Assembly (NCBI GenBank): GCA_963701295.1
Contig: OY969585.1
Span: forward strand, 512,827-576,826
Source: Ignavibacteriota bacterium
Lineage (GTDB): Bacteria; Bacteroidota; Ignavibacteria; UBA10030
Direction: 5' to 3'
Length of the DNA: 64,000 nt
In this document: piece after piece, positions 18,489 through 48,308 of the stretch
Layout: every line of letters begins with the position of its first letter
Numbering within the stretch: the stretch's first letter is position 1
The notes under the pieces: model-generated
Told to the model about the DNA's origin: nothing
The model's database searches: none
Seen by the model: only the letters and a program-made list of their open reading frames with translations
Program-made: the position numbers and the translations under genes

Positions 18489-18560
18489 TGCTTTTATCTA
18501 ACCTTTACAATTACCCAACTTCATAACACTCTATTTTTGAAATTATGTGCATACGCTTAA

Positions 18561-19316: not shown

Positions 19317-19368
19317 CTTACCTCCTAAATCTTTCTAAATTTTCAATAGAAATCATTTTTTAACCATT

Positions 19369-19920: not shown

Positions 19921-20140
19921 TAATTTTCGTAATTGACATCATTTATATTCCTCATATGTCCAATATTTAGCCTTCCAGCAGAAAAAAGCAACTTTTTAAG
20001 TACATATAATTACACTTAATTATTTGAGTAATAGCCGTAATTCGCATGCTTTAGCAAATATTTTCCTAAATCTTCTTAATATTATCTCATATCCCCTTGT
20101 CATATTGGACAAAACGACTATTTCGATAAAGCCACATGGT

Positions 20141-23051: not shown

Positions 23052-23071
23052 AGCCTGCCCTTCGCCGGGAG

Positions 23072-31654: not shown

Positions 31655-32563
31655 CTATCGCGAAAGACTCTTCAGATGTCTTAATGCACCATCAGTTAGC
31701 CCCAATGCTTGAGCGGCCTTTCTTTGGCAATTATTGTGCTTTTCCAATGCTTGTTGTATCAATCTCCTTTCCATCCTTGCGACGGAATATTTTAGTGTAA
31801 ATTCCCTTCCTTCCTCAGTCATCAGATTCATTTTAGCAAGTTGAATTCTGTCCTTCTGCCTAATTGCTTCATCATCAGGCATAACTTGGAGGGTTTTGAC
31901 AAATGATTTGAGCTCAAGAATATTTTCATTCCATCTGTTACGCTGAAGCAATTTGACGAAGTTATTATCCATTGGATTTCTTCGCTCTATTTGAAATTGA
32001 GTGAAGAAATGTTGTGCAAGCTCAGGAATATCCTCCTTCCGTTCTTTGAGTGTCGGCACGTAGATCAATTTGTATTTTGCGAGAATCTTTGAAAGCCCAG
32101 GGATAATGGAACCTGATTTGAATAGCCGTTGTGGATGTTTGTTAAATACGAAGATCAATCTGCATCGAACTGGGCGTTCATCCTCCGTGCCAAGTCGAAT
32201 CACTGTTCTGCTAAGGATAGCTTTCACCAATTGTTCTTGCAGGAATTTCGAAGCACTATCAATGTGTTTTAGAACTATAGTAGTCGGCAATTCGAGAACG
32301 CTGCGGCGGGTAGTCGGAAGCTCCGGTGGACTGCCTCCAAGTAATCTGACACGTTGATCTCGTTCACTTAGTATATTGAAATTGACGGTTTCGAGTTCAC
32401 GGTCCTTCAACAACGAATGGGCGTGAATGCGGGAAGACAAAAGAGATTTGCCGACTCCCAGGTCGCCGGTGATAACAAGCGGAAAGGTATCCGCCGATAG
32501 TTTTGTGAGGGAAGCTCTGATGCGCTTGATTGCTGGACTCCCCCCTATCAGGTGGTCTGGCAT
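31655..32563 (-). CDS. Sigma54-activator-like (AAA+ plus Fis-type HTH) regulator without a receiver/sensor domain and without GAFTGA; Walker B degenerate
   Basis: LIGGSPAIKRI...ITGDLGVGKS (Walker A). C-terminal HTH ...CQRKAAQALGLTDGALRHLKSL. LLGGSPPELPTT occupies the place of the ESELFGHEKGAFTGA region. Confidence 0.65.
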   Translation of the reverse strand: MPDHLIGGSPAIKRIRASLTKLSADTFPLVITGDLGVGKSLLSSRIHAHSLLKDRELETVNFNILSERDQRVRLLGGSPPELPTTRRSVLELPTTIVLKHIDSASKFLQEQLVKAILSRTVIRLGTEDERPVRCRLIFVFNKHPQRLFKSGSIIPGLSKILAKYKLIYVPTLKERKEDIPELAQHFFTQFQIERRNPMDNNFVKLLQRNRWNENILELKSFVKTLQVMPDDEAIRQKDRIQLAKMNLMTEEGREFTLKYSVARMERRLIQQALEKHNNCQRKAAQALGLTDGALRHLKSLSR

Positions 32564-32842: not shown

Positions 32843-33181
32843 CTAATATATAGAATCAGAAAGAAATTCAACTCCATCATCCAACTTGATAGATGCAATG
32901 GCACGGATAATTTTCTCAAGTTCCTTACGCTCGCTTGAAACATTGACACCAAGAAAATCAATATCCTTAGTGGGCCTTGCTTTCTCAATATTGTAAGCGA
33001 GAAGAAGGAAGCCGCCTTTTAACACAAACTTCTTTACATACTTTGATGCTGCAAGACGTGCAAGAAAGCGCTCCTGAATGTATCGCAGTAATAGAAAATT
33101 AAAATCAAGGTTTTCTTTTTCAGAAATATTTTTAAGGCGCGCTAGAACTGATGCGGAAACATTGGTAGTCGGTTTTTTCAT
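32843..33181 (-). CDS. AbiEii/AbiGii-family nucleotidyltransferase toxin, truncated (N-terminal about 112 aa only)
   Basis: N-terminal AbiEii motif. Full-length proteins are about 280-300 aa. The ORF ends at a cluster of palindromes. Confidence 0.55.
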   Translation of the reverse strand: MKKPTTNVSASVLARLKNISEKENLDFNFLLLRYIQERFLARLAASKYVKKFVLKGGFLLLAYNIEKARPTKDIDFLGVNVSSERKELEKIIRAIASIKLDDGVEFLSDSIY

Positions 33182-33771
33182 CCCATAATCACCTTCACAT
33201 ATTGAGAGATGATACCTTTTACTCGACAAATTTCTGCGAACTTCATCAGTTTATTGAGATCACGATTGCGTTTTCGGAGATACGTTTTGAGACCCTCCAT
33301 TACGATATCTTCACCGAGTTTGTTCCTGAACCGGAAACAATCACAGATAGTTTTTTCAACACCGTAGAGTCGAATATGACCAGCTTTGGTTTCGTGGTGT
33401 TCAATCCCTGTTTTGTACTGAGCTTCGGAAAAATAGAAAGACTCCGTCGGTGGATGAGAAAGCTTGATCGGTTTATTCGCTCTTGGAATGGCATACGTTA
33501 TAACTGTAGGAACGAATGTCGTAAGCTCGTGAAACGCGAGCGCTGAAGAAAGGCTGATAACTGCTTTCGGGATAGCAAGACAGACTTCTACGAGTCCGCT
33601 CGATTCACCAAGCTCAAGCTGCGAAAGCCGATATAGGCCAGCTTTCACCTTTACGATGTCGCCTCCATCAACTGCCTTCAGGATTTCCCTTGTGTGGATA
33701 CCGCTCGCTTTCATTTCCTTCATTCGAGCGTAACCCTTATGGGCTTTGAGATATTTTAGTATTTGATTCAT
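33178..33771 (-). CDS. AbiEi-family antitoxin/transcriptional regulator (type IV TA system)
   Basis: MNQILKYLKAHKGYARMKEMKASGIHTREILKAVDGGDIVKVKAGLYRL is the AbiEi N-terminal winged HTH. Its stop overlaps the toxin start. Confidence 0.65.
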   Translation of the reverse strand: MNQILKYLKAHKGYARMKEMKASGIHTREILKAVDGGDIVKVKAGLYRLSQLELGESSGLVEVCLAIPKAVISLSSALAFHELTTFVPTVITYAIPRANKPIKLSHPPTESFYFSEAQYKTGIEHHETKAGHIRLYGVEKTICDCFRFRNKLGEDIVMEGLKTYLRKRNRDLNKLMKFAEICRVKGIISQYVKVIMG

Positions 33772-34188
33772 ACGGATGGTTCTAATTAGCTGCACATAAT
33801 ATAAACGTGCAGTAGAAAAGAAGCAAGAGGCTGGCAAAGATTTAATCAAAAACGCCTGACGCATTACCAGACGCCAGTCGTTTAGGGAGTCTAACTATGC
33901 GCTGTCGGGGAGACGGCACGGGAATATTGTATGAAATGTTCTGGTTTTTGTCAATTAATATTTTAGATGAAAAATAAAGACCCCGGCACATTTATAAGTA
34001 CCGGGGCTCAAGGGGAAGGGGGTAAAGAACCACTGCGCGCCAACACAGTGATGCTACTGAAAAATAGCCGTTGATATCTTCGGGGGATTGATATCAATTT
34101 ACCCCCTTTTTAATTTCCGATTCATAAACTTTTTATTGCTTGGCATAATGATATTTACTAACAAAGATTTAAATAGTCAATTTCTCGT

Positions 34189-34542
34189 TTATTCAAGTAT
34201 GCCAAACGCTTGTTGCTCTATGGGAACAATTCCCTGTAATACATCCATCATATTTCGCGCACCGTCAGGATTAAACGAATGCACAACAACTCTCTCATGT
34301 AGTTTATCTTTCGTCATTTGTGAAATAAATTTCGCTACCGCGAATCCGCTTACTTCATCGCTTGGACAAAATATCTCCCCGCCTAAATCGTGATCGAGGC
34401 TTACTAAGTCATAAGGAGAATTTTGTTCCAGCATTTCTATTGCTTGTTCCACCGTTTCTACCTTGGTCAATTCATCTTCGACAAATTTAATCTCTGCCTC
34501 TTTCATTCTATCTTTGTCGTCATCGAGAAATAATACTTTCAT
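34189..34542 (-). CDS. Stand-alone receiver (REC-like) domain protein
   Basis: MKVLFLDDDKDRM...DLVSLDHDLGG... Acidic pocket and DxDL pattern of a CheY-like fold. 117 aa. Confidence 0.5.
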   Translation of the reverse strand: MKVLFLDDDKDRMKEAEIKFVEDELTKVETVEQAIEMLEQNSPYDLVSLDHDLGGEIFCPSDEVSGFAVAKFISQMTKDKLHERVVVHSFNPDGARNMMDVLQGIVPIEQQAFGILE

Positions 34543-34686
34543 TTTGATTTACAACTTAACGAATGGCAACTTTACTGACAGATCAATTCTTCTTCGCCTG
34601 CTTCTCCATCCCTCGATACCAGTCATGTCGAGCTTGAGCGCCTGGTTATACCGCTTGCTTTAAATAACCGCAAGAGAAGAAAAAGA

Positions 34687-35008
34687 ATGCCACCGAACAC
34701 GAGAAAAACGGATGCGCCATACCATCCGATGACCCAAGGAAAGATCGAACGGTATCATCGCTCGATGAAGAATGAAATCAATTTGCAGAAGTATTATATG
34801 CCGTGGGAGTTGGAACAGGAGATCGAACGATTTATTGATTACTACAACAACAAACGATATCACAGCCCTGGACAATGTCACCCCAGCTGATGTATATTAT
34901 GGCAGGCAATGTGAAATTATTACTAGGAGGGAACAACTTAAACAACAAACTTTGAAAGCACGAAGACGGTACAATTTATCACAACAAACGGCTCAAATCA
35001 TCTCTTAG
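34687..35008 (+). pseudogene. IS481-family transposase C-terminal fragment, 5'-truncated and internally frameshifted
   Basis: ...HPMTQGKIERYHRSMKNE...DYYNNKRYHS|ALDNVTPADVYYGR... The C-terminal motifs are split across two frames. No N-terminal DDE region is present. Confidence 0.7.
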
Positions 35009-35010
35009 AA

Positions 35011-35299
35011 AATATTTAATTCTGTCCATTTGACTTTGAAGACATACATTTTATCTCCCTCCATCAAACACCAATAACCTTTTTTTAATCCGTTAATCTC
35101 AATGCCATCTTTGCTTCCAAGATCTTGAAGCCAATATTTTCCTTCACTATCACAGTAAATCCCGGCATGAAATCTTAGAAGAGGAATCAGTTAGCACGAT
35201 ATCGTTCAATGGATCTCTTCCGATTGACAATGCACGAATTCCGAACAGTGATTTTTCTGCGTACAGGACACCGTTTTTATAAATTGCTAATGAATACAT
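35011..35299 (-). pseudogene. FHA-domain small protein with a frameshift near 35165
   Basis: Reverse-strand translation gives MYSLAIYKNGVLYAEKSLFGIRALSIGRDPLNDIVLTDSSSKISC in one frame, then HAGIYCDSEGKYWLQDLGSKDGIEINGLKKGYW...NIF* in another. Together these make an FHA pattern. Confidence 0.5.
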
Positions 35300-35779
35300 A
35301 CTCTCACCCTCATACTTAGATGATTTGAAATATAAAACTAAAAGATAATTATTAGGATGTTGCGCAAATAAGTGTTTCTGTTTCTTCGTAATGCATCTTG
35401 TTGATGGTTGTCTTTAAGTTCTCCTCCTCAATAGAGTCTCCCTACAAAATGGGTTGCATGAAATGTATATGTCCAGAGACATATTACATTTTTATCGAGA
35501 CAAATTTCCATAGTCATCTGATTTGACTGTGATTCTTCATTCGCATTCCATCGAAGATCAACGCCTGAAATTTTGTTCGATCCGCTTTCGCCACAGGGGG
35601 GATCCCAGATACACATTATTTCATCGACCTTGGTAAGCCTCCTAATCCTCCCAGAGCATCTTCCAGTTCGCCGTGTATTCCTTAATCAAGTCCAGCCCAA
35701 GGTGCGGGCTATTTGATGCTTGTGTAGAAGCCACGAGTACATCGCAACACTCATCAAAGGCGTAGTTTGGGTTTTCGAT

Positions 35780-35998
35780 CTACCAAAACCTCCACCAAGG
35801 TTTCCTTAATCCCTTAGCTATGAATTTGACATCTTTGTCTTTCATCCACATCGTAGCAAAAATCGAGGTGCCACAGTGCGGGCAATTATGCACCGGCTTT
35901 CCATTCGGGCTCACGATTTCTTTCTTACATTCGGGGCACGCAATACGATCTCTGAACTGCATAGACATTATCTCAGACAATCTCTTATCTTCTTTCAT
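35780..35998 (-). CDS. Small zinc-ribbon protein (CPECK...CPHCG)
   Basis: Start chosen at MKEDKRLSEIMSMQFRDRIACPECKKE... The longer upstream extension contains a duplicated segment. Confidence 0.4.
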   Translation of the reverse strand: MKEDKRLSEIMSMQFRDRIACPECKKEIVSPNGKPVHNCPHCGTSIFATMWMKDKDVKFIAKGLRKPWWRFW

Positions 35999-36233
35999 AA
36001 TATCATTCCTCCTTTTATTTGTTTTTTTCCCGATTTGTCCACGAACGAATATGACAGTTAATTTATATAATTTGCGCAGGATATACAAATTTGGTTTGCG
36101 GGCAATACGATCTCTGAGTCGAATGGATATCATTTCTCCCCTTTATTAATATTTACATCACAATTCGGCCATATTGTTATTTGTCGCAAAGAGGCGATCT
36201 CCAGCTGTCAATACACATGACCCTGGATTGTTG

Positions 36234-39200
36234 CTATTCGCCACAACCCTCCAACCGAAATAAATAGAAATTGCCTAAGAAATCGCCGCAGGCGATGAGA
36301 TGGCTGTCCGGCGAAATGCTCACGGCAAATACTTCTGCATCACAACAGTAGCTAAGTATTACCTGTCCTGTCCGGCGATCCCATACCTTGACGGTATGAT
36401 CAAAGCTACCTGATATGATAAACCTGCCATCTGATGAGAACGCACATGTTACGACGGTGTCTTGGTGACCCACCAAGGTGGTGAGCGGCTGTCCTGTGTG
36501 GCGATCCCACAGTCTGACGGTGTGATCGTAACTGCCGGAGACGATCCATTGGCCATCCGGTGAAACTGCACATGCCGTGATACTTCCCGTGTGACCGGTC
36601 AGGGTGGCAAGATCTTTTCCTGTTCGGCTTTCCCAGAGTTTTAATGTGGTATCGTTACTACCGGACACAATCAAACTCCCCTCCGGGGAAAAAGCACATG
36701 ACTCAACGGAACTCCGGTGCCCACGCAACGTTGCCAGTTCGTGTCCCATCTTTGCATCCCAGAGTTTGACTGTCGCATCACCACCGCCGGACACAATGCG
36801 GCTGCCCTCCGGCGAAAAGGCACACGTGTTGACGCTTGTTTCATTATGCCCGATGAACGTCCAGAGCTGTTCGCCATTTGAACTGTCCCAAAGTTTCAGG
36901 GTCTTGTCCTTGCTACTCGAAACGATGCGGCCTCCATCTGGCGAAAAGTGAGAACATGTTACTTCATCGTCGTGCCCGGCCAGCGTTGCAAGCTCCCGGC
37001 CTTGGCGGCCGTCCCAGATCTTCAGGGTCTTATCTTTGCTGCTTGACACGATCCGCGCACCATCCCGCGAAAATGCCAGGTGACTGATACACGCGTGATG
37101 TCCTGCCAAGGTAGCCAACTTTTTGCTGCCTTTGGTATTCCAGATTTTGAGCGTGTTGTCGGTACTGGTCGAGACGATATGCGAGCCATCCGGTGAGATC
37201 GCGCATGACTTGGCGCCCTCGTAATCATTTGCCAAGGTTGCCAACTCTTTTCCAATTACGGCATTCCACAGTTTAAGTGTGGAGCCTCCTGACACTATCA
37301 AGTTTCCATCTGAAGAGAATTCACAAGTGGATACACTGCCGTCGTGTCCTGTAAAAGGTGGCATCTCTTTTCCCGTCGCGGTATCCCAGACCTTTATACC
37401 AACTCCGGTCCCGCAGACTATGCGGCTGCCATTCGGCGAAAATTCGCAACTATGTATCTCAGAAATACCGTGGTTTTCTCCCGTGAACAGTGTTCGCTTC
37501 TCACCTGTCTTGATGTTAGTTAACGTCAGTGTTTCATTCCAATTGAAACCTACATTTTCCCTGTTCTCTCCCAATGCCAAGAAGTTACCATCTCGCGAAA
37601 GACGACAGAAGCCAAGTGCAATACCTTGTTGCCTTGTCCGCGTAGAGAATGCGACTTCTCCAGTGTAAATGGACCGGATTTTTAGGATACCATCGATATT
37701 ACTATACGAAGCAATGCGATCACCGTTAGCCAAGTAGGTACAGTAATCGACACCGGATTCATATCCGGTCAGAGTTCCCTGCAACTTCTCGGTGGCCCGA
37801 TTCCAGACCTTGACAGTTTTGTCTTTACTGCTCGACGCGATGAATTTCCCATCAGGAGAGAACTGACAGCAAGTCACGGTGTCGGTATGGCCGGAAAGTG
37901 TGACGATTTCGCTCCCGGTATCTACATCCCAGAGCTTGACGGTTTTGTCTTTCCCCCCGGACACGATGACCTTTCCATCCGGTGAAAAGGCGCATGTCTC
38001 GACACTCTCCGTGTGCCCAGTTAGCGTCATTAGTAAATGAGATTCCATGAGTTGCGGTTCCCGGCATTGGCGGAGAAATTTGCCACCACGCGCTAGGAAT
38101 CGCTTCCGCAGGGCGTCGAATGCGTCACTTATTTGACCTGATTTCCAGGAAAGGTTGTTATACAGGTATTGAAACGCATTCCGCGGGTCTGAGCGTAGAC
38201 GATGCTGCTCCAACATAACGGTATTATAGTATGTAGCGATCTCGGTCGGATTGGCTATAGGTGGCTTTAATTCCAGCGCTCTTTGGTAATCTGCTAACAA
38301 ATCATTTAGCAAATCTCCTTTCACTTTGGCTTCAAGGAACAATAGGTCGCTCAACGTCGCGTTCAGAACATCTCTGTCTCCAGCGTTGATCTCCTGGAAG
38401 GGAAGCTCTACCAAAGCGTGGATATCGCTGCCAATCCAGGTTTCATTGCCGGTGGGATCAGCCTTCCACAGAAAGAACCGGGCGAGACGGGCGTGGTATG
38501 CTGGCCTGAGATAGCGCTGTTTGATTGCTTCGCCGATCTGCCGTTGGTAATAACTCATCAGCACTGTGTTATCGGCTGCGCGCTCAACCAGATACGGAGC
38601 CAAGTCATGGTAGAGTCTGAGCCAAACGACCACCGGAATTCCTTCCGCCTCCGGGGATTTGGCAGAGCGCGCTTTCAGGTCGTCCATGACGTCTTGGTCA
38701 GAAAGGAGCACGATGATTTCACTCTCGGACAATCCATTCCGGGCGGCGGATAATAGGCCAAGAAAGGTCTTGACTAACAGTTCCCCATGGTGGCGCTTGT
38801 CTTGCAGCCTGGTGAGCATATTATCTACCATCCCAGCTACATCCTCGGCAAGAACCGACACATCGTCCCAGGATTTCCACCTTCGAACCTCTTCAAAGGC
38901 CAGCTTCAAGTAGAGAGGATAAGGACATTTTCGGAATCCCGCCAACACGCGCTTCTGCTGCTGTTTTGTCAGCGAGCGATGGACATCGTGGAGCCAATGC
39001 TGCAACACCTGTGCCCCTTCCTTTTGCCGCATGTGATCTAGGCGAAGGAACATCCGTTCAGAATCCCGCGATTTTCTTGACATGTTGGTCGACATCCTAC
39101 TCAGCCACGTCACAGTTTTCTTGAGCATCTCCCGAACGAATGTCGGCCGTTCATCTTCGGACTCTATTAGGGATGCGACAATGCGCACATACGGCGGCAA

Positions 39201-40559
39201 GACTCTTGGCAGCCAGCTAATCATATTGGCCAAGTCAGAATAAGCCAACTCAGATACTTCGAGCTGATCGAGGGCGTCGAGAAAGATGATGAGTGGTCGC
39301 TGTGTTGTCGCTAAATCAAGGAGACGTATGAACTCCTTCTCCAGTTCTTTAGCTCCGGACGGGATGTTGCCAAGTTTCACATGATACGCCTCGCTGATCT
39401 CGCGAACCAGATAATATAGGAGTCCACGCATTTCTATCGAGTGAGGTGTGGCTCCAATGAAGCGTTGGATAACATAGGCGTGCGCCTGTGTGTCAACAGC
39501 TTCGCGCGCCGCCTTCGCCATCAGGGCGGATTTACCGCTACCCGTCGGGCCAAAGATAAAAAGGGTGTATTCGTTTTCGTTACGGAGGTAAGCCGTGATC
39601 TGGTTCAATTGAGTCTGTCGGCCTACGAAGTTCTTGCACCGATCTGCACCGAATTCCTGATGCGCTGATCGCTCGAGAGATAAGGCGTCGACGTCTGCTA
39701 GCCGTTGAAACTCCTCTTCCAGGATGTTCCTCAGCGACGCCAACGCATCGGCGGCGAACTGGGCGAGGTGTTCATTTAGCGTCGTGCCGTTCCATATGAC
39801 AGCATAATCGAAATGATTGATCCCGGGTTTCTGCCGGATTGCTTCCTTGAGGGCGCGCGCCTGTTCTATACCATCGTCAACGTAGGGACTATTATGAGGG
39901 AGTTCTTCGACATTCTCGATATTGCGCAGAAAGGCGACAACATGTTCCTGCTGATCCGGCAACGCTAGCGCTCCATGGATAATTTCTTGATGCGTAGCCG
40001 AGCACTCATATTTGATCCGGCGTTGGTCATTCATCGGCCATCCAAGATGGTTTATAGCGTCTAGCAAGATGGCGTGCAACGTCCGTTCTGTCTGGAACCA
40101 GGCGTCATAGTCTTTTTCCTCAGGCACATACTCACGGCGCGAGCGTAATAAATATTCTGGGGGCATGGCGTTGGTGTCGAGCCGGTACCAGTCCGCTAAT
40201 AGAGGACGGTGGGCGACTGGGACCGCGGAGCGAATCGTGTCGAATTCAGTTACCTCGATCTGCGGCGGCAACGGCAGCCACCCATAGCGGTCACCGAAGA
40301 GGATGAGGAAGTTCGGTCGGGGCGAAACGTCCTGGCACCGTTTGAGCTCAGTCAGGCAAATATTCATCGTTTGCTGGTCGAGCGCCGCTTCTTCGGTGAC
40401 CCCCCAGCGTAGGTCAATGGCCTGAAAGTGGCACTGGTTCGCCTCGCAGAATTTCTGCAGTTCAGGGAACACCTTCTCCTGGAGCGCGTTGCGTTCCTCT
40501 TTCATGTCGGCAAAAGTTGAGCTGACAAATACACGGAATATCTTGGTTTGTTTTTGCAT
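36234..40559 (-). CDS. STAND NTPase: DUF4062 N-terminal domain, NACHT ATPase and C-terminal WD40 beta-propellers (about 14 or more repeats); NWD1/TEP1-like architecture
   Basis: N-terminus IFRVFVSSTFADMKEERNAL... matches the DUF4062 pattern. Walker A IFGPTGSGKSALM. Many LxGHxxxVxxCAFSPDG...WD repeats. GC content is visibly higher than the surrounding DNA. Confidence 0.8.
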   Translation of the reverse strand: MQKQTKIFRVFVSSTFADMKEERNALQEKVFPELQKFCEANQCHFQAIDLRWGVTEEAALDQQTMNICLTELKRCQDVSPRPNFLILFGDRYGWLPLPPQIEVTEFDTIRSAVPVAHRPLLADWYRLDTNAMPPEYLLRSRREYVPEEKDYDAWFQTERTLHAILLDAINHLGWPMNDQRRIKYECSATHQEIIHGALALPDQQEHVVAFLRNIENVEELPHNSPYVDDGIEQARALKEAIRQKPGINHFDYAVIWNGTTLNEHLAQFAADALASLRNILEEEFQRLADVDALSLERSAHQEFGADRCKNFVGRQTQLNQITAYLRNENEYTLFIFGPTGSGKSALMAKAAREAVDTQAHAYVIQRFIGATPHSIEMRGLLYYLVREISEAYHVKLGNIPSGAKELEKEFIRLLDLATTQRPLIIFLDALDQLEVSELAYSDLANMISWLPRVLPPYVRIVASLIESEDERPTFVREMLKKTVTWLSRMSTNMSRKSRDSERMFLRLDHMRQKEGAQVLQHWLHDVHRSLTKQQQKRVLAGFRKCPYPLYLKLAFEEVRRWKSWDDVSVLAEDVAGMVDNMLTRLQDKRHHGELLVKTFLGLLSAARNGLSESEIIVLLSDQDVMDDLKARSAKSPEAEGIPVVVWLRLYHDLAPYLVERAADNTVLMSYYQRQIGEAIKQRYLRPAYHARLARFFLWKADPTGNETWIGSDIHALVELPFQEINAGDRDVLNATLSDLLFLEAKVKGDLLNDLLADYQRALELKPPIANPTEIATYYNTVMLEQHRLRSDPRNAFQYLYNNLSWKSGQISDAFDALRKRFLARGGKFLRQCREPQLMESHLLMTLTGHTESVETCAFSPDGKVIVSGGKDKTVKLWDVDTGSEIVTLSGHTDTVTCCQFSPDGKFIASSSKDKTVKVWNRATEKLQGTLTGYESGVDYCTYLANGDRIASYSNIDGILKIRSIYTGEVAFSTRTRQQGIALGFCRLSRDGNFLALGENRENVGFNWNETLTLTNIKTGEKRTLFTGENHGISEIHSCEFSPNGSRIVCGTGVGIKVWDTATGKEMPPFTGHDGSVSTCEFSSDGNLIVSGGSTLKLWNAVIGKELATLANDYEGAKSCAISPDGSHIVSTSTDNTLKIWNTKGSKKLATLAGHHACISHLAFSRDGARIVSSSKDKTLKIWDGRQGRELATLAGHDDEVTCSHFSPDGGRIVSSSKDKTLKLWDSSNGEQLWTFIGHNETSVNTCAFSPEGSRIVSGGGDATVKLWDAKMGHELATLRGHRSSVESCAFSPEGSLIVSGSNDTTLKLWESRTGKDLATLTGHTGSITACAVSPDGQWIVSGSYDHTVRLWDRHTGQPLTTLVGHQDTVVTCAFSSDGRFIISGSFDHTVKVWDRRTGQVILSYCCDAEVFAVSISPDSHLIACGDFLGNFYLFRLEGCGE

Positions 40560-40822
40560 GGTAAATCTCTTTAGTTATATAATACTTGTGGTAGTGTTTT
40601 TATGATGCTTTTTTTCACCCAGCATCACCTGTTCTGCAGTCACTCTTTAGGGCGGGTCACCGTCCACTTGATAAGTACGCCGCAGAAACGGGAACACAAA
40701 GCACACTAGGTGGTCGCGTTCCATATGCATGTCACGAAAGGTGCTGTTGATAGATACTCGCCCTGTTTTTCCTCCTTCAGCTATTTATTCCTTAAGGATA
40801 TATACTCACAAGTAATGTACAC

Positions 40823-42442
40823 TTAGATATGTTCCACTTTTACAAACTTCATCAGCGTAAGCCATTCTTGTGTTTCCTGCAACATTAGTTTCTCTGTATC
40901 GTGTAAAAGATCCTTGAACTTCTGAATTGTTGTCGTCTCAGCGAATTTGTGATCAAGTCCATTCAAAGCTGCGGCCATATCCTTGCTTCTTTTTTCCAAG
41001 CGAGCGTATTCACGATGAGTACGGATACCACCAATGGAGGCACCAACGACAGGCAGCACAATAGCGAGGAAGAATATTGGTTGCTCCAACCAGTTTGTCC
41101 CCTCCATATTGTTTAAGATCGTTGATAAAAGATGTATCGCTGCTATTCCTATTGCTATGAAAAATATTAGCATACCAAAATTTTCTAGCCTCTTGCTAAT
41201 CTTTCCAGTTTGATACGATTTCTTTAGGTGAAAATTAATTTGATCTTGGATGAATTGCTTCCGAATAAAGTCCACATGCGAATTTAAACTCTCTTTGCAG
41301 CATTTCTCCAAATTGCCTACTCCTCTTTCGATTTCATCAAATACGCGTATTGCCCAATCAATAGAACTCAATGATGATTTCATGTAACGTGGAATTATTA
41401 TTGGAGAGGGTTTTACTCCACATGAAATCAAAAAAATCGCTGAGCGAATACGCTCTACCAAGAACCTACTCTCTATCCATCTTTTGTGTGCTTGTTTCCT
41501 GTCTGTTTTGAATATGACTATAAATATGAAAAGCAAGACTATGAACTCAATGATAAAAGCAGGAAGAGATAATGAACGATTCAACATCCCCAGTGTAACG
41601 GCAGCAACGGCCAGTGGAGAAAGTATATACACCAGCAAACCCGCTGCAAGATAGCTCCTCTGATTGACCTTTGCTAAGATTGATGAATGTACATAGAATG
41701 GCAACAACTTTTCTCTGATACTATTTTTTACTTCATCAGGTATTCGCATACCTTCAGGCGTGTCAAACAAATTCCTGTAAACATTGTTGATATAAGTTTC
41801 ACGAACTTCCTCTCGAACAGAGAAACGATCGAACATATTAAGTCTTAATAAAGATTCACTATTTAATCCAATTCCTTTTTCTACTAAACAAATATTAGGA
41901 TCCTCTGATGAAAGGATAATGAGTGGACATTTCATTTTGCGCGTATAGGTTACTATATCAGCAGTCCCTCCCTTTCCTCGAGATGGCTTGCCATCCCATA
42001 TAGCGATGAGCATATCACAATGATCTACAATATATTGTCCAGTACCTTCATATGCTTTCTGACGATCTTTAGCGACATTTCTTTTCTCATGTAATTCCTT
42101 TAGCATGTCTTTTTTTATGATTATGTGATGATGGGATATCTGGTAGAGTTCTTCAAATTCTTTTTTTGATGTCAGGGTCTGAAAGTCTTTCACATATTCA
42201 TTCTTTGCAAAGGGCAGAATGACTTCAATTTCCGAATCAGGTGTCCTCATAATTTCATTTGCAACTAATCGATCCGCACCTTCCGCTAGCGCTGTGACAA
42301 CTGTAAATGCAAAAGGCGTTATAGACTTATACTTTGAAATCGGTTGATCAAACAACTCGTAGATTGAAGATTTTAGTATTTCCCTGACTTTGGAAGCAAT
42401 TATTTCGGGTTCCTTCAGGTACTCTATGACCTGTGACACCAA
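40823..42442 (-). CDS. SLOG-like Rossmannoid N-terminal domain fused to a C-terminal 4-TM SLATT-like membrane domain (predicted nucleotide-sensing membrane effector)
   Basis: N-terminal ...ALAEGADRLVANEIM...DHCDMLIAIWDGKPSRGKGGTADIV... is a LOG/SLOG/DprA-like motif. Four C-terminal hydrophobic helices. TTG start. Confidence 0.6.
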   Translation of the reverse strand: MVSQVIEYLKEPEIIASKVREILKSSIYELFDQPISKYKSITPFAFTVVTALAEGADRLVANEIMRTPDSEIEVILPFAKNEYVKDFQTLTSKKEFEELYQISHHHIIIKKDMLKELHEKRNVAKDRQKAYEGTGQYIVDHCDMLIAIWDGKPSRGKGGTADIVTYTRKMKCPLIILSSEDPNICLVEKGIGLNSESLLRLNMFDRFSVREEVRETYINNVYRNLFDTPEGMRIPDEVKNSIREKLLPFYVHSSILAKVNQRSYLAAGLLVYILSPLAVAAVTLGMLNRSLSLPAFIIEFIVLLFIFIVIFKTDRKQAHKRWIESRFLVERIRSAIFLISCGVKPSPIIIPRYMKSSLSSIDWAIRVFDEIERGVGNLEKCCKESLNSHVDFIRKQFIQDQINFHLKKSYQTGKISKRLENFGMLIFFIAIGIAAIHLLSTILNNMEGTNWLEQPIFFLAIVLPVVGASIGGIRTHREYARLEKRSKDMAAALNGLDHKFAETTTIQKFKDLLHDTEKLMLQETQEWLTLMKFVKVEHI

Positions 42443-42605: not shown

Positions 42606-45359
42606 TTATATGCTTACCTCTATCGGTGCTTTCCGCTCGAACGCCTCCAAAATAAGGTTATTCTTAACTTTGTCAAACGAGATCATCGTACCGGAAAGGT
42701 TGAACTGTTCAGGACAAGTACCTCGATATACACTGCCCTCGGATGTCTCGACGACCACAGGCGTTTCTATACAGTCCAGATCCACAGTGATACGTCTGAT
42801 CTCAGGAATACTGATACGCATCCAGCCGAGTGACTTCTCAACAAACTGGATATAGCCGTCATAGCCCAGCTTGTCAAAGTGCCCTACGATTGCACGGGGT
42901 TGTAACAGGAATTTCAGTAGAGAGGTGTCCCAATAAACTTGCTGGGGAATCAATGATGGTCTTTCCACCTCAGCAATCCGTTTGATCGTAAGGGGGGATG
43001 TTCTGTTGGTGCGGACGAGTGCAATCACAGCATCGCGGGTTACCAGACAGGGTCCCATCGTCAGGAACCTATAGTCATCATAATTCCCGAGCTTTCGTAG
43101 ACCTCCTGTGAAACAACCAATGTCTTTTGTTTCTATGGACATCTCGTTCTTCTTTGCGGTCATTGAGATAATCTGATCTGTCCTAATCTTGACTTCACCC
43201 AACAGATTATCGAGCACCGCAATTTCTTCGATAGTACCCCCTGCGGCATAGTCCAAAAGATAGCCAACTTGCCCTGTTTCGGAAATCTTGAAGAAAACCC
43301 TGTTGTCGTGAGAATCCACAAAAGTAGCATTCCAGCCCGTCAACCATATTTCCTTGCCACGCACGCTTGGTAACTGATACCAGGGCCAGCCATTCATAGA
43401 ATACTTTATGCCACTCCATTTGTCATCCATGCCCTTCTTCGCGTATTGCAGAGGCGTGCCCGGGAGGTAGGAAAAAGAGAGGACTTTCGAGTCCTTCGCT
43501 CCGATAGTAAAAGCTAGATCATTCGTTGCAAAAAGGAAGCGTTCAGAATTCGACTGAGTTTGTACACGCTCAGCCTGGACTTCCGACGCATCAGCTACCA
43601 CCTCCTGAGCCTGCTCCAGGAGAACTGCTCGCTGGGATGGTTCAACTTTCACAATCTCAGGAACGGGCGATGGTAACGATTTCGAGATATCTTTGGAGCT
43701 CGCTGCTTCCTTGTTTGCAGAAGGCCCCCCTGTTTTCCTGACCATATCGAAAATCCAGATATTTCGGTCGTCACCGCAGAACATCATGTTGCCTGATATG
43801 TGGGCTACATAGAAGAGACCGTCTTTTGCAAATCCGAGCCTCGGCTGTGTAGGTTGTGAGATGTCGTACACAAACAGTCGGCCACTATCGTTGTAGTATA
43901 GCCAATCATCGGATATATAGACTTGAACGCCAAAAAGGGTTTTGATTGTATGCTCTAAGGGCAGTTCGTAGCATGAATCGGACTCAAGCTCCTCTGGAAA
44001 ATTCTCGAGACTATACACGGCCAGTAGGGGACGAGAGGTTCTAAAGTCCTTCCCAAAAACGTACAATCGCCTGTTGCCAGAGACAATTCCTCCTGGGACA
44101 AGGCAACCGTCGGGGAACTCTACGGTTACCGTCTTGATCTCCACTACTTCTTCTTCCCTGAGGCGAACGATGCGTAATTGAGGATCTTTATAGTTGCCAA
44201 GAATCAAGTAGTCATCGAAGAGGGCGCCCGACCCTGCGCTGAAGTGAACAACACCGATTTCGCGAACATTCTTGCTGACTTCTTGCCGGTCAGAGAAATC
44301 GAGGACCTTAACGCCACAATTTTCTGAGTGGCACAAATCGATCACAATGTTCTTGTTATAGACAAGGAGTCCATTTCCGCAGTTATTGAAGATATTCCTG
44401 TGATAGTTCTCGAAAAACACTTCCTTCGGGTTCGTCGGATCCTTATAGTCGATGACTCTTATAGAAGCATCACGGCCTCGCAGCAATCCAATCTCCCCAA
44501 TGAGCTCAAACCACTTTGTGTCGATATAAGGAACAGGAAAGAGCGATATGAGTTTGGGTGACCGAGGGTCGGAGATATCAAACGCACGCATCCCGTCGTA
44601 CGTTGGCAAGAATGCGAGCGAACCGGATACAAGCAGGTTCATCGGATCCCCAGACTTCTTCTTGGAAATGAGATGCTCTTTCGCGGATGTACCAACAAGC
44701 TTCAATTCGACTGCTGTTCCGGATACCCACTCATTTTCAATAAGCGCGAAGCTGTCGTTTGTCGTGGTTTCATTGCTGACGATCGATTGAAAAGTCTCCG
44801 ATATTGGTGCAGGTTCATTCGATCTTGTTCCAATATGCTTCTGAGAAATAGATCGTTTCTCTGTTAATCGTTCTGATAGATTGCTACGTTGGCTGACAAC
44901 ACCATCAGTTGAATCCTTGTCTCTTAGCTCATCTGGAATCCCTTTGATTAGTTTTTTAAAATATGTGTTTTCATCAAGTTGGAACTTCAGGATTCCTTGA
45001 AGACGACTCATTCGCAAAACCATCCCCTCGGGCAACTTAACGTTTTCAAGAGAGACATAGAGAAAAGTCTTGTTTTTTATGATTGCGTAATTAATCTCAT
45101 CCTTGACATATTCTGATTCACGTGACCGCGCTGTGATGAAAACCAAAAATAATGAACAACCTTCTAATTGCTTCTCGATCACACTTGAAAACTCCGACGT
45201 AGCAACGATACCGTCGTCATACCAAATCCGGTAGCCCATAACATGCAGTCGTTTAATCTCTTTAAAAACGATATCACTGTCATCATGAGAATAGCTTACA
45301 AAAACATAGGGCTCTTTACCATCGTAAGCATCAAAAGGGGGTGAGATCTTAGTTGCCAT
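42606..45359 (-). CDS. TIR-domain protein fused to a large beta-propeller (LVIVD-like repeats)
   Basis: N-terminal TIR motif YVFVSYSHDDSDIVF...WYDDG...ESEYVKDEINYA. Recurring ...DISDPRSP... and ...YDISQPTQPR... motifs downstream. Confidence 0.75.
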   Translation of the reverse strand: MATKISPPFDAYDGKEPYVFVSYSHDDSDIVFKEIKRLHVMGYRIWYDDGIVATSEFSSVIEKQLEGCSLFLVFITARSRESEYVKDEINYAIIKNKTFLYVSLENVKLPEGMVLRMSRLQGILKFQLDENTYFKKLIKGIPDELRDKDSTDGVVSQRSNLSERLTEKRSISQKHIGTRSNEPAPISETFQSIVSNETTTNDSFALIENEWVSGTAVELKLVGTSAKEHLISKKKSGDPMNLLVSGSLAFLPTYDGMRAFDISDPRSPKLISLFPVPYIDTKWFELIGEIGLLRGRDASIRVIDYKDPTNPKEVFFENYHRNIFNNCGNGLLVYNKNIVIDLCHSENCGVKVLDFSDRQEVSKNVREIGVVHFSAGSGALFDDYLILGNYKDPQLRIVRLREEEVVEIKTVTVEFPDGCLVPGGIVSGNRRLYVFGKDFRTSRPLLAVYSLENFPEELESDSCYELPLEHTIKTLFGVQVYISDDWLYYNDSGRLFVYDISQPTQPRLGFAKDGLFYVAHISGNMMFCGDDRNIWIFDMVRKTGGPSANKEAASSKDISKSLPSPVPEIVKVEPSQRAVLLEQAQEVVADASEVQAERVQTQSNSERFLFATNDLAFTIGAKDSKVLSFSYLPGTPLQYAKKGMDDKWSGIKYSMNGWPWYQLPSVRGKEIWLTGWNATFVDSHDNRVFFKISETGQVGYLLDYAAGGTIEEIAVLDNLLGEVKIRTDQIISMTAKKNEMSIETKDIGCFTGGLRKLGNYDDYRFLTMGPCLVTRDAVIALVRTNRTSPLTIKRIAEVERPSLIPQQVYWDTSLLKFLLQPRAIVGHFDKLGYDGYIQFVEKSLGWMRISIPEIRRITVDLDCIETPVVVETSEGSVYRGTCPEQFNLSGTMISFDKVKNNLILEAFERKAPIEVSI

Positions 45360-45388
45360 AATTTAGCTCCAAATACTCTTTTAAAAAG

Positions 45389-47980
45389 TCAACTCAAGCT
45401 TGACACAATCTTATATTTTGCTTGTTTTAAAATATCAGGATATTTTCTTACGGAATTCCTGTCCTTCTCTTTGTTCTCTTCGGACAACTCGAGATACGGT
45501 TTCAGACAGTCATGTATTTTTTTTGAATCGTCTCGAGGTTTTCCACAGGTCCAACCATTTTCAATTTTATGGTCCATCCAGTCATTGTGTTCGGCTTCTG
45601 CAAGCATCTCAATGTTCGCTTCGATGATCTCCATAATCTCCACTATGGGTTGGGACTTTGAATAAGTCTCAGGTACTACATATAACCCTACCAGATCGAG
45701 TACATTAGGGATTCGAGCCGCGGCAGCCCGATTGTCGTCCTTGTAATCTTCTGATAATAAATCGAAATCCCGATTCATCTCTGACCGGATCCACTTTCCT
45801 TTTATTCCCGATTGCCAATAAAAATCGTGGACGAAGGGCGCCAGATCCTCCGCGTGGGTTTTGAACTTCAAATCCCGATTAACGATACCAATAAAATCTG
45901 CAGAATCTGCATGCATGGACAGGATCTCCTCAGACGGCAGATCGGATCTGCGTATTGAAGGAATGTCCTGCTTTTTCAACTGGAGGATAATTTTTTCTAA
46001 AGACCGGGCGCCATGTTTGAACCGATTGGTCTCAATGAGCGCTGAAAGGATACCATGGTCAATGGCCAGCGGTTCGGTTTCCTTCAATCCGAGCATTGCC
46101 CTGATCAGCAAGCCTCTTCTGACCGGGTAACATACGTCTTGGGAATCATCGATCCATTGTTGTTTTTTTGTATTGTAAGTCTGTTTCTGGTTCGGTCCGA
46201 GCACGTTCAAATACCCGCTAAGCCTGCTTATGAAGTCCGGACCTTTTTTCAATTTGAATTCATTCCACTTCTTTTCATCTGTCTCTTTTGGACCGAAGTT
46301 CTCCATATCATAGCTGGTACCGCCCGCGAACACAAAAACGCTTTTCCCAATCGGGTGTGAAATCTGACCCTCGAGAAATTTCCCATCTTGCATCGGCGCC
46401 AGAAGGTACTGCAACCATTGGTATTCCTTGGAATCAAATTCATCCCAGAACACAATCGGTAAAGTACCCTGAAGCACTTTATCTCTCACCTGATGGAAAG
46501 CCCCAATTAAAGCATCGGGATCCTTGAACTGAGATAGGTTAAATTCCAAAATGGGAACGTCTTTGCCGAGAATCCCTTTTGCGATCTCGCAGATTCCGAA
46601 GCTCTTGCCTGCTCCTGGAGGTCCGAACACAGCAAGGCTGAGCGGTTTCTTGCCTTTATCGTGATCTTTATAATCTATGATCATCGCGCGAATATTCCGC
46701 AGGCTTTCGATTTCATTTCGATCCGCGGTGTACAGTTTTCCAAATCGGGCACACGGAACCTGGGTCAACGCCTTGGGACCTTTAACAGCAACCCTACGGC
46801 CAATGCCAAAGAGTGGCCTTGGGTTTTTATGGATGCCTTCCAGAACAGCTGTCATAATCGTCCAGGTCTTGCGTTCTAGCTCGATAGACTTTTTGGGATT
46901 CGGTATCTGAATTATGGGATACCAAAATTTCGGATTCAGGACATCCTTAATCACATCGACGAGTGGGAATCCGGGGTTACTGCATCCCGCAGTCCCGTGC
47001 CCCGAGAGGTGCATGGTCCGCATCGCTGAAAGTCCTGCACGGATGCCTTCATAAATTGAATCTGAATGATTCGGTTGGAGTAGACGATCGATGATTCCTG
47101 AAGTGAGGCAGGCCATATAGCCGAGACCTTGTCCTTCAATTGGATCGCTCCATTCACGTTCAAGGTGTTCCGGATCGTAAACAAGATGAAAGATTTTCTC
47201 GCTAACGTTGTTTTCCACATGGAGCGCGCCTTCCGATCCGAAGTGAACAATGAGATGCCGGCAATTCAGCAGGGAATTAATTTCTGAATTGAAGCACAAT
47301 TCCTCTGCAAGTTCCAGAGCTGTTCGCTCCCACGAAATTCCCCTGCTCACTTTCACTTCTTCCCGTCGGATATCCCCGATTGAAACCACAACCACCAGCT
47401 TGTCGCGGAACTGGGTACTAAGATACCTCCACAGATCACCCTGACCCACTGGGCTTGACATTTTTAGGACAATCCACTTCAGTTCTTGTATCTCCTTTTT
47501 CAGAATCGACTTTGGCCATGCTCCCTTCTGTGTATTTTGCCTGAACCCAAGTCCACCGTCATCGATTACTACGACTGTGGGTTTGTTCGACGTTTCGGCT
47601 GCATGTTCCACGTAAGAGAAAGAAGATTCTATTTGACTACCATATCCTAGGGGCTGTGCCATTCTCCAAACTTTTTTATCCTTTTCAAAAGGAAACGGTT
47701 TCCAGAGTGCGTATCCATTCAAGGCCGCAGGAAGCTTTTTAAAAATATCATCTCTTAATCCGAACTGAACGTCAAACGGATTTTGAAGTTCTTTACTCTC
47801 AGATCTCTTTTTCCCTATTTCTTCGAGGATTCGAAAAAGAAGTCCAGCCCCGCCGTCTGTCGTTTGCTCCTGAGTTCCTGTTTTTTCTATAGCATTGGGA
47901 ACAAGACGTTCGCCCATATAAATTTGATGATCAACGACCACATCACCAGTAACTAAAACCGTTCTGGAGTTTCGAGGCAT
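45389..47980 (-). CDS. AAA+ ATPase with a C-terminal RyR (ryanodine-receptor-type) domain and a long N-terminal Rossmann-like region
   Basis: Walker A VFGPPGAGKSFG and Walker B IVFWDEFD. C-terminal EHNDWMDHKIENGWTCGKPRDDSKKIHDCLKPYLELSEENKEKDRNSV is the RyR-domain signature. Confidence 0.7.
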   Translation of the reverse strand: MPRNSRTVLVTGDVVVDHQIYMGERLVPNAIEKTGTQEQTTDGGAGLLFRILEEIGKKRSESKELQNPFDVQFGLRDDIFKKLPAALNGYALWKPFPFEKDKKVWRMAQPLGYGSQIESSFSYVEHAAETSNKPTVVVIDDGGLGFRQNTQKGAWPKSILKKEIQELKWIVLKMSSPVGQGDLWRYLSTQFRDKLVVVVSIGDIRREEVKVSRGISWERTALELAEELCFNSEINSLLNCRHLIVHFGSEGALHVENNVSEKIFHLVYDPEHLEREWSDPIEGQGLGYMACLTSGIIDRLLQPNHSDSIYEGIRAGLSAMRTMHLSGHGTAGCSNPGFPLVDVIKDVLNPKFWYPIIQIPNPKKSIELERKTWTIMTAVLEGIHKNPRPLFGIGRRVAVKGPKALTQVPCARFGKLYTADRNEIESLRNIRAMIIDYKDHDKGKKPLSLAVFGPPGAGKSFGICEIAKGILGKDVPILEFNLSQFKDPDALIGAFHQVRDKVLQGTLPIVFWDEFDSKEYQWLQYLLAPMQDGKFLEGQISHPIGKSVFVFAGGTSYDMENFGPKETDEKKWNEFKLKKGPDFISRLSGYLNVLGPNQKQTYNTKKQQWIDDSQDVCYPVRRGLLIRAMLGLKETEPLAIDHGILSALIETNRFKHGARSLEKIILQLKKQDIPSIRRSDLPSEEILSMHADSADFIGIVNRDLKFKTHAEDLAPFVHDFYWQSGIKGKWIRSEMNRDFDLLSEDYKDDNRAAAARIPNVLDLVGLYVVPETYSKSQPIVEIMEIIEANIEMLAEAEHNDWMDHKIENGWTCGKPRDDSKKIHDCLKPYLELSEENKEKDRNSVRKYPDILKQAKYKIVSSLS

Positions 47981-48308
47981 GACATATCTCCTGATTAAAA
48001 AGTTGTATTTATACTTTACACGTCAGTTGCGTTGATAGAATAATATTTTTCATCTCCGAGGGAGCTCACACCAGTAGCAAATGTGAATGAAACACATAGT
48101 GAATCTTGTAATAAATCTCGATAAATACAATTAGTCGTTTTAGTATTGACTACACATTATGCAGAGGTTGTAAAAGAAGATTATTAGACAGAAATAATCA
48201 TCTTGAATCACACCGAATTTCTGCAAATCTTTATGAAAAATAGGGGATTTGAATATATACAGAATCGCTTGGTCTGTAATTAAGCGGTGAGATTGATGGA
48301 TGCATGAT

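Follow-up and report, generated by a model that had tools for sequence, protein, structure and literature searches.

Three 2026 preprints have reassigned DUF4062 as a TIR-like NAD+ glycohydrolase (NADase) domain, in the Swarozyc protein KpSwz (catalytic residue E97), in Evangelion, and in human TEP1 (E1008) and the TeTIR family. The DUF4062 proteins KpSwz and Evangelion deplete NAD+ and provide phage defense, and the NADase activity of TEP1 goes up with its concentration. TeTIR proteins are defined by an extended TIR-like domain of 200-350 aa immediately before a NACHT ATPase, followed by WD40 or TPR repeats at the C-terminus, and the family includes prokaryotic proteins (Hornebeck et al., 2026, bioRxiv 10.64898/2026.09.21.753143; Osinski et al., 2026, 10.64898/2026.05.01.722283). 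Its prokaryotic members are directly related to TEP1 and lack the TROVE/VWA extension of the human protein; NWD1 and NWD2 are more divergent. Here we analyze a gene of this family in a 64,000-nt stretch of contig OY969585.1 from an Ignavibacteriota bacterium (assembly GCA_963701295.1, positions 512,827 to 576,826), hereafter the window. The target gene is an intact coding sequence on the minus strand (36234..40559) that opens with ATG and encodes 1441 aa, with a GC content of 0.52 overall and 0.58 at third codon positions (GC3).

The target protein has three parts, all encoded on the minus strand. Residues 1-310 (39630..40559) form a predicted TeTIR/DUF4062 TIR-like NADase domain, supported by Pfam, by matches to the PDB chain 11gz_A, by invariant alignment columns and by an AlphaFold2 model. 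Residues 311-830 (38070..39629) form a STAND module composed of a nucleotide-binding domain (NBD), helical domain 1 (HD1), a winged-helix domain (WHD) and helical domain 2 (HD2), recognized from Pfam models, motifs, AlphaFold2 and Foldseek. Residues 838-1441 (36237..38048) hold 14 WD40 units, presumably the ligand sensor. The placement that defines the family is thus present: a TeTIR domain from aa 1 to about 310 directly before a NACHT-type ATPase whose Walker A motif starts at residue 337, with 14 WD40 units at the C-terminus. We interpret the protein as a single-chain STAND sensor of the TeTIR/DUF4062-NACHT-WD40 family and as the prokaryotic counterpart of human TEP1, and we consider this explanation, taken as a whole with the mechanism and the transfer proposed below, to be probable. 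The target gene is a bacterial member of a family already characterized in 2026, and no new kind of system.

The N-terminal domain was matched by Pfam DUF4062 (PF13271) at aa 9-104 with 49.5 bits, against a gathering cutoff of 24.7. In a search of PDB sequences with the single protein, the solved TIR-like domain of human TEP1 (11gz_A) was matched at E 3.2e-12, and a family profile of 74 sequences matched it at E 3.3e-22. The alignment to TEP1 is broken by a large family insertion at about aa 100-185, which separates strand C from the catalytic helix. When this insertion was cut out, purely as an alignment device, the shortened query matched 11gz_A at E 5.4e-14 over chain residues 6-189, and HMMER aligned SATHQE192I of the window protein on SVTEME(1008)V of TEP1. 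The construct of 11gz_A covers residues 895-1113 and its chain has 220 residues; chain index i is therefore residue 893+i, which sets E1008 on E192. The same offset sets the essential R942 on R51 and thereby cross-checks the numbering. Mutation of any of F902, R914, R942, C959, R976 or E1008 abolishes the NADase activity of TEP1. The corresponding residues of the window protein (F11, R23, R51, C68, R91 and E192) are all identical and are invariant in the 74 family members, and the RWG loop consists of R51-W52-G53. Judged from these alignments, the residue set of a TEP1-type NADase is complete in the target protein. The predicted catalytic glutamate, E192, is encoded at 39984..39986 (minus strand). 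We rejected E105 as the catalytic glutamate, since TEP1 has no glutamate at that position and E192 aligns with E1008.

The AlphaFold2 model of aa 1-310 has a mean predicted local distance difference test score (pLDDT) of 91.7 and consists of five beta-alpha units, with E192 opening helix C and a long helix at the C-terminus. In order, the predicted elements are strand A (7-14), helix A (17-40), strand B (44-48), the RWG loop (51-53), helix B (64-78), strand C (83-88), the insertion (about 100-185), helix C (188-198, with E192), strand D (207-214), helix D (231-243), strand E (247-254) and the long helix E (265-309). The KpSwz chain 10wc_A gave only a weak match with the family profile (aa 5-26, E 0.008), and a phmmer query consisting of just the active-site segment failed to retrieve the TEP1 chain. 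An hhalign comparison of the TeTIR alignment with a TIR_2 alignment of four sequences returned no match and was uninformative.

The central module carries a Walker A motif, GPTGSGKS, at aa 337-344 (39528-39551), a Walker B motif, LIIFLDALDQ, at aa 423-432 (39264-39293), and an NWD1-type winged helix at about aa 573-685. The Walker A motif and this organization are those of the NACHT clade, in which Kibby et al. place TEP1-type NACHT modules as clade 16. Several Pfam models match this region: AAA_16 (55.8 bits), NPHP3_N (31.3 against a cutoff of 24.8), HTH_NWD1 (31.2 against 27) and nSTAND1 (27.8 against 27.1). The AlphaFold2 model of aa 301-830 has a pLDDT of 89.9. Its best Foldseek match is Apaf-1-ADP (1z6t_B; E 6e-9, template modeling scores 0.58/0.53, about 555 columns), and further PDB matches of this nucleotide-binding oligomerization domain (NOD) were Avs3, CED-4 and plant NLRs. 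As the modeled NOD is closest to these proteins, the target protein is predicted to have the layout of Apaf-1, that is, an effector followed by NBD-HD1-WHD-HD2 and a double propeller, with an enzyme in the place of the Apaf-1 CARD. The WD40 matches total 385 bits over aa 838-1441. A repeat HMM built from the protein itself found 12 clear units (E 1e-8 to 1e-26) and 2 degenerate ones (964-1016 and 1395-1441); each repeat is about 42 aa long, visible in the DNA as a 126-nt periodicity. The resulting 14 units are consistent with two seven-bladed propellers.

An earlier note, made from the letters of the window, had described a 1441-aa protein with a DUF4062-type N-terminal domain and about 14 WD40 blades, and both descriptions hold. 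It had also called the architecture NWD1/TEP1-like and compared the domain order with animal NWD1. The eukaryotic parallel is real, as the scores of HTH_NWD1 and NPHP3_N above their cutoffs indicate, but TEP1 is the more exact reference, with the direct match to 11gz_A. The reading depended on an N-terminal DUF4062 domain and a P-loop of NACHT or STAND type, and DUF4062 and several STAND models of Pfam were indeed found above their cutoffs. The same note proposed a search with bNACHT profiles, which did not place the protein: no bNACHT or Avs family among the PADLOC 2023 models matched it. By this profile comparison the target protein therefore lies outside the experimentally characterized bacterial NACHT/Avs families. 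The PADLOC matches that were seen are HEAT-ARM_XIII on the WD40 part, a weak mad8 match on the P-loop, and Avs2 at E 0.005.

TEP1 and the TeTIR family are the closest of the described systems. TEP1 shares with the target protein the extended TIR-like (DUF4062) domain directly before a NACHT-type ATPase, the WD40 repeats that follow, the NWD1-type winged helix, the identical F, R, R, C, R and E residues and the RWG loop, and the two are connected by a direct sequence match. Unlike TEP1, the target protein lacks the TROVE/VWA extension and the vault context, has a larger insertion (about aa 100-185), and is a bacterial, mobile protein encoded in a string of conflict genes. NWD1, NWD2 and NPHP3 have the same DUF4062/TeTIR-NACHT-repeat order without an N-terminal extension, and the HTH_NWD1 and NPHP3_N models derived from them match. 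They are nevertheless farther from the target protein than TEP1 is, and the target keeps the full catalytic set, whereas the TeTIR domain of NWD1 is truncated and NPHP3, which carries TPR repeats, lacks the catalytic glutamate; none of the three was active in vitro. Swarozyc (KpSwz) and Evangelion (Eva01) share with the target DUF4062 itself, and represent single-gene, horizontally mobile defense by NAD+ depletion. Both consist of a DUF4062 core with a short auxiliary domain at the C-terminus (KpSwz senses the phage portal) where the target has 1100 aa of NACHT-WD40, and both lack the RWG-loop-extended TeTIR form. The target protein does not have their composition, and its sequence match to them is weak.

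More distant systems resemble the target protein in its overall logic. Apaf-1 and CED-4 share the effector-NOD-double WD40 layout, with ADP-bound, closed Apaf-1 as the best structural match of the NOD model, and autoinhibition by the propellers is likely to be common to Apaf-1 and the target protein, by analogy. In contrast, the effector of Apaf-1 and CED-4 is a CARD adaptor and not an enzyme, their NB-ARC/AP-ATPase Walker B motif differs, and identity is about 11-12%. The bNACHT and Avs proteins and the plant TIR-NLRs are likewise tripartite effector-STAND-repeat sensors, some with a TIR or SIR2 NADase that is activated by oligomerization following the binding of a phage or pathogen protein; in the target protein the effector is a TeTIR and not a canonical TIR domain.

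These analogies allow a mechanism to be proposed on the model of Apaf-1, plant TIR-NLRs and the bacterial Avs/bNACHT proteins. We infer that the double WD40 propeller keeps the nucleotide-binding module closed and ADP-bound until a ligand, most plausibly a phage protein, binds and frees it. Nucleotide exchange would then lead to oligomerization, and the clustered TIR-like domains would become active NAD+ glycohydrolases, with E192 as the catalytic residue and R51 in the RWG loop. Consumption of NAD+ would result in abortive infection or growth arrest, and the ADP-ribose-type product may in addition be read or processed by the RyR-domain AAA+ protein described below. The most likely function is thus ligand-triggered NAD+ cleavage by an Apaf-1-like oligomerizing sensor, in defense against mobile elements; a role in phage defense would follow from the same analogy.

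The composition of the target gene sets it apart from the rest of the window. Its GC content is 0.520, compared to about 0.41 for the rest of the window, and its GC3 is 0.579, compared to a mean of 0.399 for the other 41 open reading frames (ORFs) (standard deviation 0.056, maximum 0.502; z = 3.2). The codon bias B is 0.367, versus 0.217 +/- 0.032 in the other ORFs of at least 500 aa, and its tetranucleotide profile correlates with that of the remaining window at 0.27, versus 0.91 +/- 0.04 (lowest value 0.81) for 51 equally long windows. Across 38.4-40.4 kb the GC content of 200-nt windows is 0.49-0.60, the non-repetitive TeTIR and NOD parts included. The closest relative that we found, at 71% identity, lies on a metagenomic contig of 58% GC (L002), where it has a GC content of 0.585 between flanks of 0.586 and 0.571; its neighbors, which include ribosomal proteins, MreB and BrnT/A, are unrelated to the window. 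This outlying composition, the native appearance of the 71% relative in a 58% GC genome with another context, the flanking relics described next and an insertion-sequence remnant nearby support horizontal acquisition of the target gene from a GC-richer lineage into a genome of about 41% GC. The earlier note had estimated the GC content of the gene at about 50-55% against about 40% for its neighbors and deduced a separate acquisition; both points are borne out by the sliding-window and tetranucleotide analyses, the codon usage, the 71% homolog and the flanking relics, which come from a different family member.

A six-frame search of the whole window with the family HMM returned just the target gene and two relics, compared to no hit in 20 shuffled windows. 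Relic A (40650..40784, minus strand) is the decayed 5' end of a different TeTIR gene, beginning IAEGGKTGRVSINSTFRDMHMERDHLVCFVFPFLRR, and matches HMM positions 3-37 at E 4.4e-6. Its 45 aa end at a stop codon and have no start codon, although an AAGGAGG site resembling a ribosome-binding site (RBS) precedes them; the relic begins about 40 nt after the SLATT gene and resembles the beginning of a gene resident in that string. Relic B (35431..35685, minus strand) is a stop-free piece of 85 aa that contains KISGVDLRWNANEESQSNQMTMEICLDK, and its residues 37-65 (about 35491-35577) match HMM positions 43-71 at E 2.2e-5. The two relics lie on the strand of the target gene, one on each side and about 5 kb apart, and cover consecutive, non-overlapping parts of the domain, so that B continues A. 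Both are degenerate, with S at the position of the essential F11 and RWN in place of RWG, and the relic subtype is FISSTFRDMHxERD-like, as in TEP1, and differs from that of the target gene, to which the relic ranks 102/121 in similarity. Pfam gave no match to the merged relics, whose significance rests on the family HMM, and nothing of the relic gene was detectable beyond relic B.

The relics also change the meaning of the GC-rich stretch of about 200 bp that the earlier note had placed upstream of the gene (40600-40760; GC 0.49). A GC-rich part is there (40640-40775, 0.515), but the 80 nt beside the start codon (40560-40640) are AT-rich, at 0.35, and the stretch is the relic of another DUF4062 gene; 40776-40822 is AT-rich as well (0.30). 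The GC-rich upstream stretch is thus a pseudogene fragment and not a leader of the target gene, and most likely belongs to the resident locus rather than to the acquired gene. We rejected the idea that this stub is a conserved leader or upstream ORF traveling with the gene, as the upstream regions of the window and L002 have no DNA similarity. Stubs of this kind recur elsewhere: in unrelated genomes, full-length family genes are preceded at 4-160 nt by 5' TeTIR fragments (L002, 9889-9984; L018, 2746-2922; L007, 6066-6353; L116, 5581-5688). Their lack of start codons, their differing lengths and the mostly absent relationship to the adjacent gene argue further against a leader. They hint at a recurrent replacement of family members whose breakpoint falls in the conserved 5' region, so that 5' stubs remain. 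Scans for promoters and terminators did not rise above the shuffled expectation.

Upstream of the target gene, the window encodes an 863-aa RyR-domain AAA+ protein (45389..47980, minus strand; RyR Pfam 59.7 bits; PDB 6uhi_A, E 7e-24). It carries an nSTAND5-like AAA+ P-loop (GPPGSGKS, 453-460) and WDEFD (512-516), followed by tandem RyR (PF02026) domains. Its family consists of proteins of about 900 aa with an N-terminal region of about 430 aa, the AAA+/nSTAND5-like P-loop and two RyR domains; the N-terminal region has no match in Pfam, NCBIfam or PDB sequences. Phage RyDEP proteins, which also carry RyR domains, bind or cleave the Thoeris signals 2'/3' cyclic ADP-ribose (cADPR) via H75, W78, H100 and D117 (Lopez Rivera et al., 2026, PMC13232231). 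The window protein has the same H-x2-W ... H ... D tetrad as RyDEP/RyR Repeat12, at H798, W801, H823 and D840 and with unchanged spacing; two of these residues, H798 and D840, do not vary within its family. RyDEP is a small phage anti-Thoeris protein, whereas the RyR tandem of the window forms the C-terminus of a host AAA+ protein of about 900 aa that is tied to TeTIR-NACHT genes.

This tie was seen from both directions. We compared loci anchored on TeTIR genes (L011-L088) and on the RyR partner (L089-L168). An iterative search over the fetched loci found RyR-domain ORFs in 29 of 78 independent TeTIR-anchored genome loci (37%) and in 18 of the 38 with at least 9 kb on both sides (47%); of 42 such ORFs, 38 share the strand of the TeTIR-NACHT gene and 11 are no more than 600 bp away from it. 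Reciprocally, a TeTIR domain is present in 27 of 80 partner-anchored metagenome loci (34%) and in 25 of 50 with at least 3 kb of flank (50%), many of them abutting the partner. About 20 of the RyR neighbors are full-length homologs of the window protein (32-42% identity), from Alphaproteobacteria, Chloroflexota, Acidobacteriota, Ignavibacteriota and methanogenic or halophilic archaea, and other RyR neighbors are fused to RelA/SpoT and NUDIX. The 71% relative of the target gene has a full-length RyR homolog 1.1 kb away (15493-18201 in L002; 36% identity over 936 columns). The partner gene moves as a single gene: positions 966-3581 of L089 and 45388-48003 of the window share 76% nucleotide identity over exactly the length of the gene, with unrelated flanks. 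We had considered L089 as an empty site, and rejected this because the RyR gene alone is shared. The literature that we searched contains no report linking RyR domains to DUF4062, TeTIR or NACHT, and the linkage is, as far as can be told, unreported.

Some observations weigh against this account of the protein and its partner. Full-length human NWD1, NWD2 and NPHP3, which have the same architecture, show no NADase activity in vitro, and the literature searched offers no experimentally examined bacterial TeTIR-NACHT protein with the full STAND architecture; nor, as said, does any bNACHT or Avs model recognize the target. The P-loop IFGPTGSGKSALM, which the earlier note had assigned to NACHT, does contain the STAND/NACHT-type GPTGSGKS, but Pfam NACHT (PF05729) reaches 26.2 bits, 0.5 below its cutoff of 26.7, and the Walker B motif reads DALDQ. 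Of the NACHT signature D[GAS]hDE (Kibby et al.), D428-A-L-D-Q432 fits four of five positions, with an invariant Q in the family for the last acidic residue; in precomputed lists, a PF05729 match is present in most homologs. The inactivity of the human proteins would suit a non-enzymatic scaffold or regulator without an immune role, as proposed for animal NWD1 and NPHP3, and systems of the type described by Kaur et al. in multicellular bacteria may act in cell-fate control. We nevertheless regard such a scaffold as very improbable for the target protein, given that the six catalytic and substrate residues of TEP1 are fully conserved over 74 relatives, that the family is patchily distributed, mobile and found in prophage-adjacent and defense-gene contexts, and that pseudogenized relics are frequent, which indicates the rapid turnover typical of conflict genes. 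The partner raises a different alternative, namely Thoeris-like two-component signaling in which the TeTIR product is bound by the partner RyR domains and the partner N-terminal domain is the real effector or, in a variant, the partner cleaves or sequesters the product and so sets a threshold against self-activation. The strong two-way linkage (37-47% within 10 kb, and 34-50%), the full-length homologs from distant phyla and archaea, the conserved RyDEP tetrad of domains able to bind or cleave 2'/3' cADPR, and the RelA/SpoT and NUDIX fusions, which are nucleotide-signal enzymes, all favor it. Yet TEP1 and KpSwz yield solely linear ADP-ribose and nicotinamide and nothing cyclic, an RyR gene is missing from half of the loci, many TeTIR-NACHT genes occur on their own, the partner N-terminal domain has no recognizable effector fold, and the co-occurrence could be inflated by the general clustering of defense genes in islands. 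In the window itself the two genes are non-adjacent, 4.8 kb apart with two genes between them, and have different histories: the RyR gene shares just 36% identity with the one that accompanies the 71% homolog and therefore did not arrive with the target gene. Signaling of this Thoeris-like kind thus seems somewhat unlikely to us. The linkage points to a partner that may read, process or damp the product of the NADase, and we only tentatively propose that TeTIR-NACHT sensors and tandem-RyR AAA+ proteins of about 900 aa may make up a widespread two-gene immune module of bacteria and archaea, in which RyR would read or process an ADP-ribose-type product.

The history of the site can also be read in more than one way. 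High GC could reflect constraints on a native gene, through amino-acid composition, homogenization of the WD40 repeats or codon selection, with no transfer at all. The GC-normalized dinucleotide distance is ordinary (40 versus 50 +/- 20), a point against transfer; the WD40 repetition extends to the DNA itself, and the neighboring RyR and TIR genes are also somewhat GC-raised (GC3 0.47-0.50). But the excess is greatest at third codon positions (0.58 versus 0.40), where protein constraint is weakest, and extends to the TeTIR and NOD parts, the 71% homolog has the GC of its 58% host, and the context of the target gene is conserved with none of its relatives; we consider a native origin improbable. 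As to what the transfer did to the site, we lean toward the view that about 5 kb of DNA with the GC-rich gene, through insertion or replacement, broke up a resident TeTIR paralog, which subsequently eroded. The target gene would have entered an existing string of conflict genes (RyR-AAA, TIR-propeller, SLATT and the older TeTIR gene), and would most likely have disrupted or replaced the last of these. Against this, no target-site duplication, terminal inverted repeats or recombinase were found at the supposed junctions, where the "DPP" codons common to both junctions are of too low a complexity to interpret, and the stubs in L002, L018, L007 and L116 have no detectable downstream continuation. 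The same observations fit leftovers of separate tandem paralogs that decayed by deletion, with the GC-rich gene as the survivor of a former array. Two or more long family genes lie within 20 kb in 15 of 81 loci, the arrays in L007 and L010 include fragments, and detection is biased, since only the N-terminal 70 aa or so are conserved enough to be recognized as relics; tandem decay is therefore a serious rival, though in our view a distinctly less likely one. The relics of the window are consecutive (HMM 3-37 and 43-71), on one strand, in the right order and the sole such hits in 64 kb, the relic is of another subtype than the target gene (rank 102/121), the full gene is compositionally foreign, and relic A is placed as in an operon, 40 nt after SLATT and with its own RBS-like site, all of which speaks for interruption of a resident gene.

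The TeTIR/DUF4062-NACHT-WD40 architecture ties bacterial immunity to three human proteins of still poorly understood function, TEP1, NWD1 and NWD2. An intact gene with all catalytic residues is a good candidate for learning what the WD40 propellers sense and how NACHT oligomerization activates a TeTIR NADase. To the description of the family our analysis adds residue-level evidence of an intact enzyme, relics that show turnover, and the two-way association with RyR-AAA+ proteins. The split relic and the recurrent 5' stubs document that these sensors turn over rapidly by replacement. Together with the 2026 work on RyR and cADPR, the RyR linkage leads to a testable hypothesis of a new NAD-derived signaling pair and of an origin of RyR repeats as nucleotide sensors; if true, the pairing of RyR proteins with TeTIR-STAND proteins, as the ancestors of TEP1, NWD1 and NWD2, would be a prokaryotic precedent for the long-debated link between cADPR and the ryanodine receptor in animals.

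The family is large, with more than 1,398 of the scored candidate proteins matching at E <= 1e-5, and comes in a short form (about 780 aa, without repeats), a WD40 form and a TPR form. An alignment-based scan confirmed at least 514 loci in species-representative genomes of many bacterial phyla and several archaeal lineages; a scan of species-representative genome contigs with the single target protein as query returned no matches. A 60%-identical homolog in the Desulfobacteraceae bacterium UBA2245 (L005/L006, 10001-13789) lies at a prophage edge, between an integrase/deaminase region and phage tail genes. L007 and L010 hold arrays of DUF4062-NACHT-TPR/WD40 paralogs together with TIR_2-NACHT, NUDIX and RelA/SpoT-RyR fusions, and are dense conflict clusters centered on NAD and nucleotides. 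In L008/L009, genes for a Macro-domain protein and an NAD kinase lie no more than 10 kb from a 46%-identical homolog (P0005 cluster). Its neighborhood also contains a stop-free ORF of 499 aa whose C-terminus carries RyR domains (16613-18109) and, 10 kb downstream, another DUF4062-WD40 gene.

Next to the target gene, 34543-36233 is a junkyard of an insertion sequence (IS) fragment, a TeTIR relic and a small ORF. The IS fragment, just past relic B, is the frameshifted C-terminal remnant of an rve-type (IS3/IS481-like) transposase (34687..35008, plus strand; rve_3, E 2.2e-15). The small ORF, between the target gene and relic B, encodes a zinc ribbon (35780..36133, minus strand); its first 45 codons are an apparent partial duplicate of the real start, with a 35-nt direct repeat (35940-35974 and 36102-36136), and a better, RBS-bearing start lies at 35998 (about 72 aa). 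It was not found beside homologs of the target gene.

Among the neighbors, TIR, SLATT, cREC and AbiEi genes provide a conflict-gene context. A 917-aa TIR_2 protein with an LVIVD/beta-propeller-like C-terminal region (42606..45359, minus strand) belongs to the same gene string, as a candidate association only, and a 539-aa SLATT_1 protein of the effector type with two transmembrane segments (40823..42442, minus strand) is LOG/SLOG-like at its N-terminus by motifs alone. These two genes resemble a Thoeris-like sensor/effector pairing, for which PADLOC gave weak ThsB hits only. On the other side lie a stand-alone cREC_REC receiver of the cyclic-phosphate processing type (34189-34542, minus strand; E 1e-17) and an AbiEi antitoxin-type gene (33178-33864, minus strand; PADLOC E 3e-61) with no recognizable AbiEii partner beside it; an RtcR/PspF-like sigma-54 activator without the CARF part (31655-32563) adjoins them. 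Farther away, 16132-23890 is probably a separate integrated element, with tRNA-His and tRNA-Glu followed by a tyrosine integrase (17466-18488), several low-GC ORFs (0.33-0.38) without a family match, and an IS3-type transposase (23072-23890). The window also encodes multihaem cytochromes, a sigma-54-type regulator and RND efflux genes.

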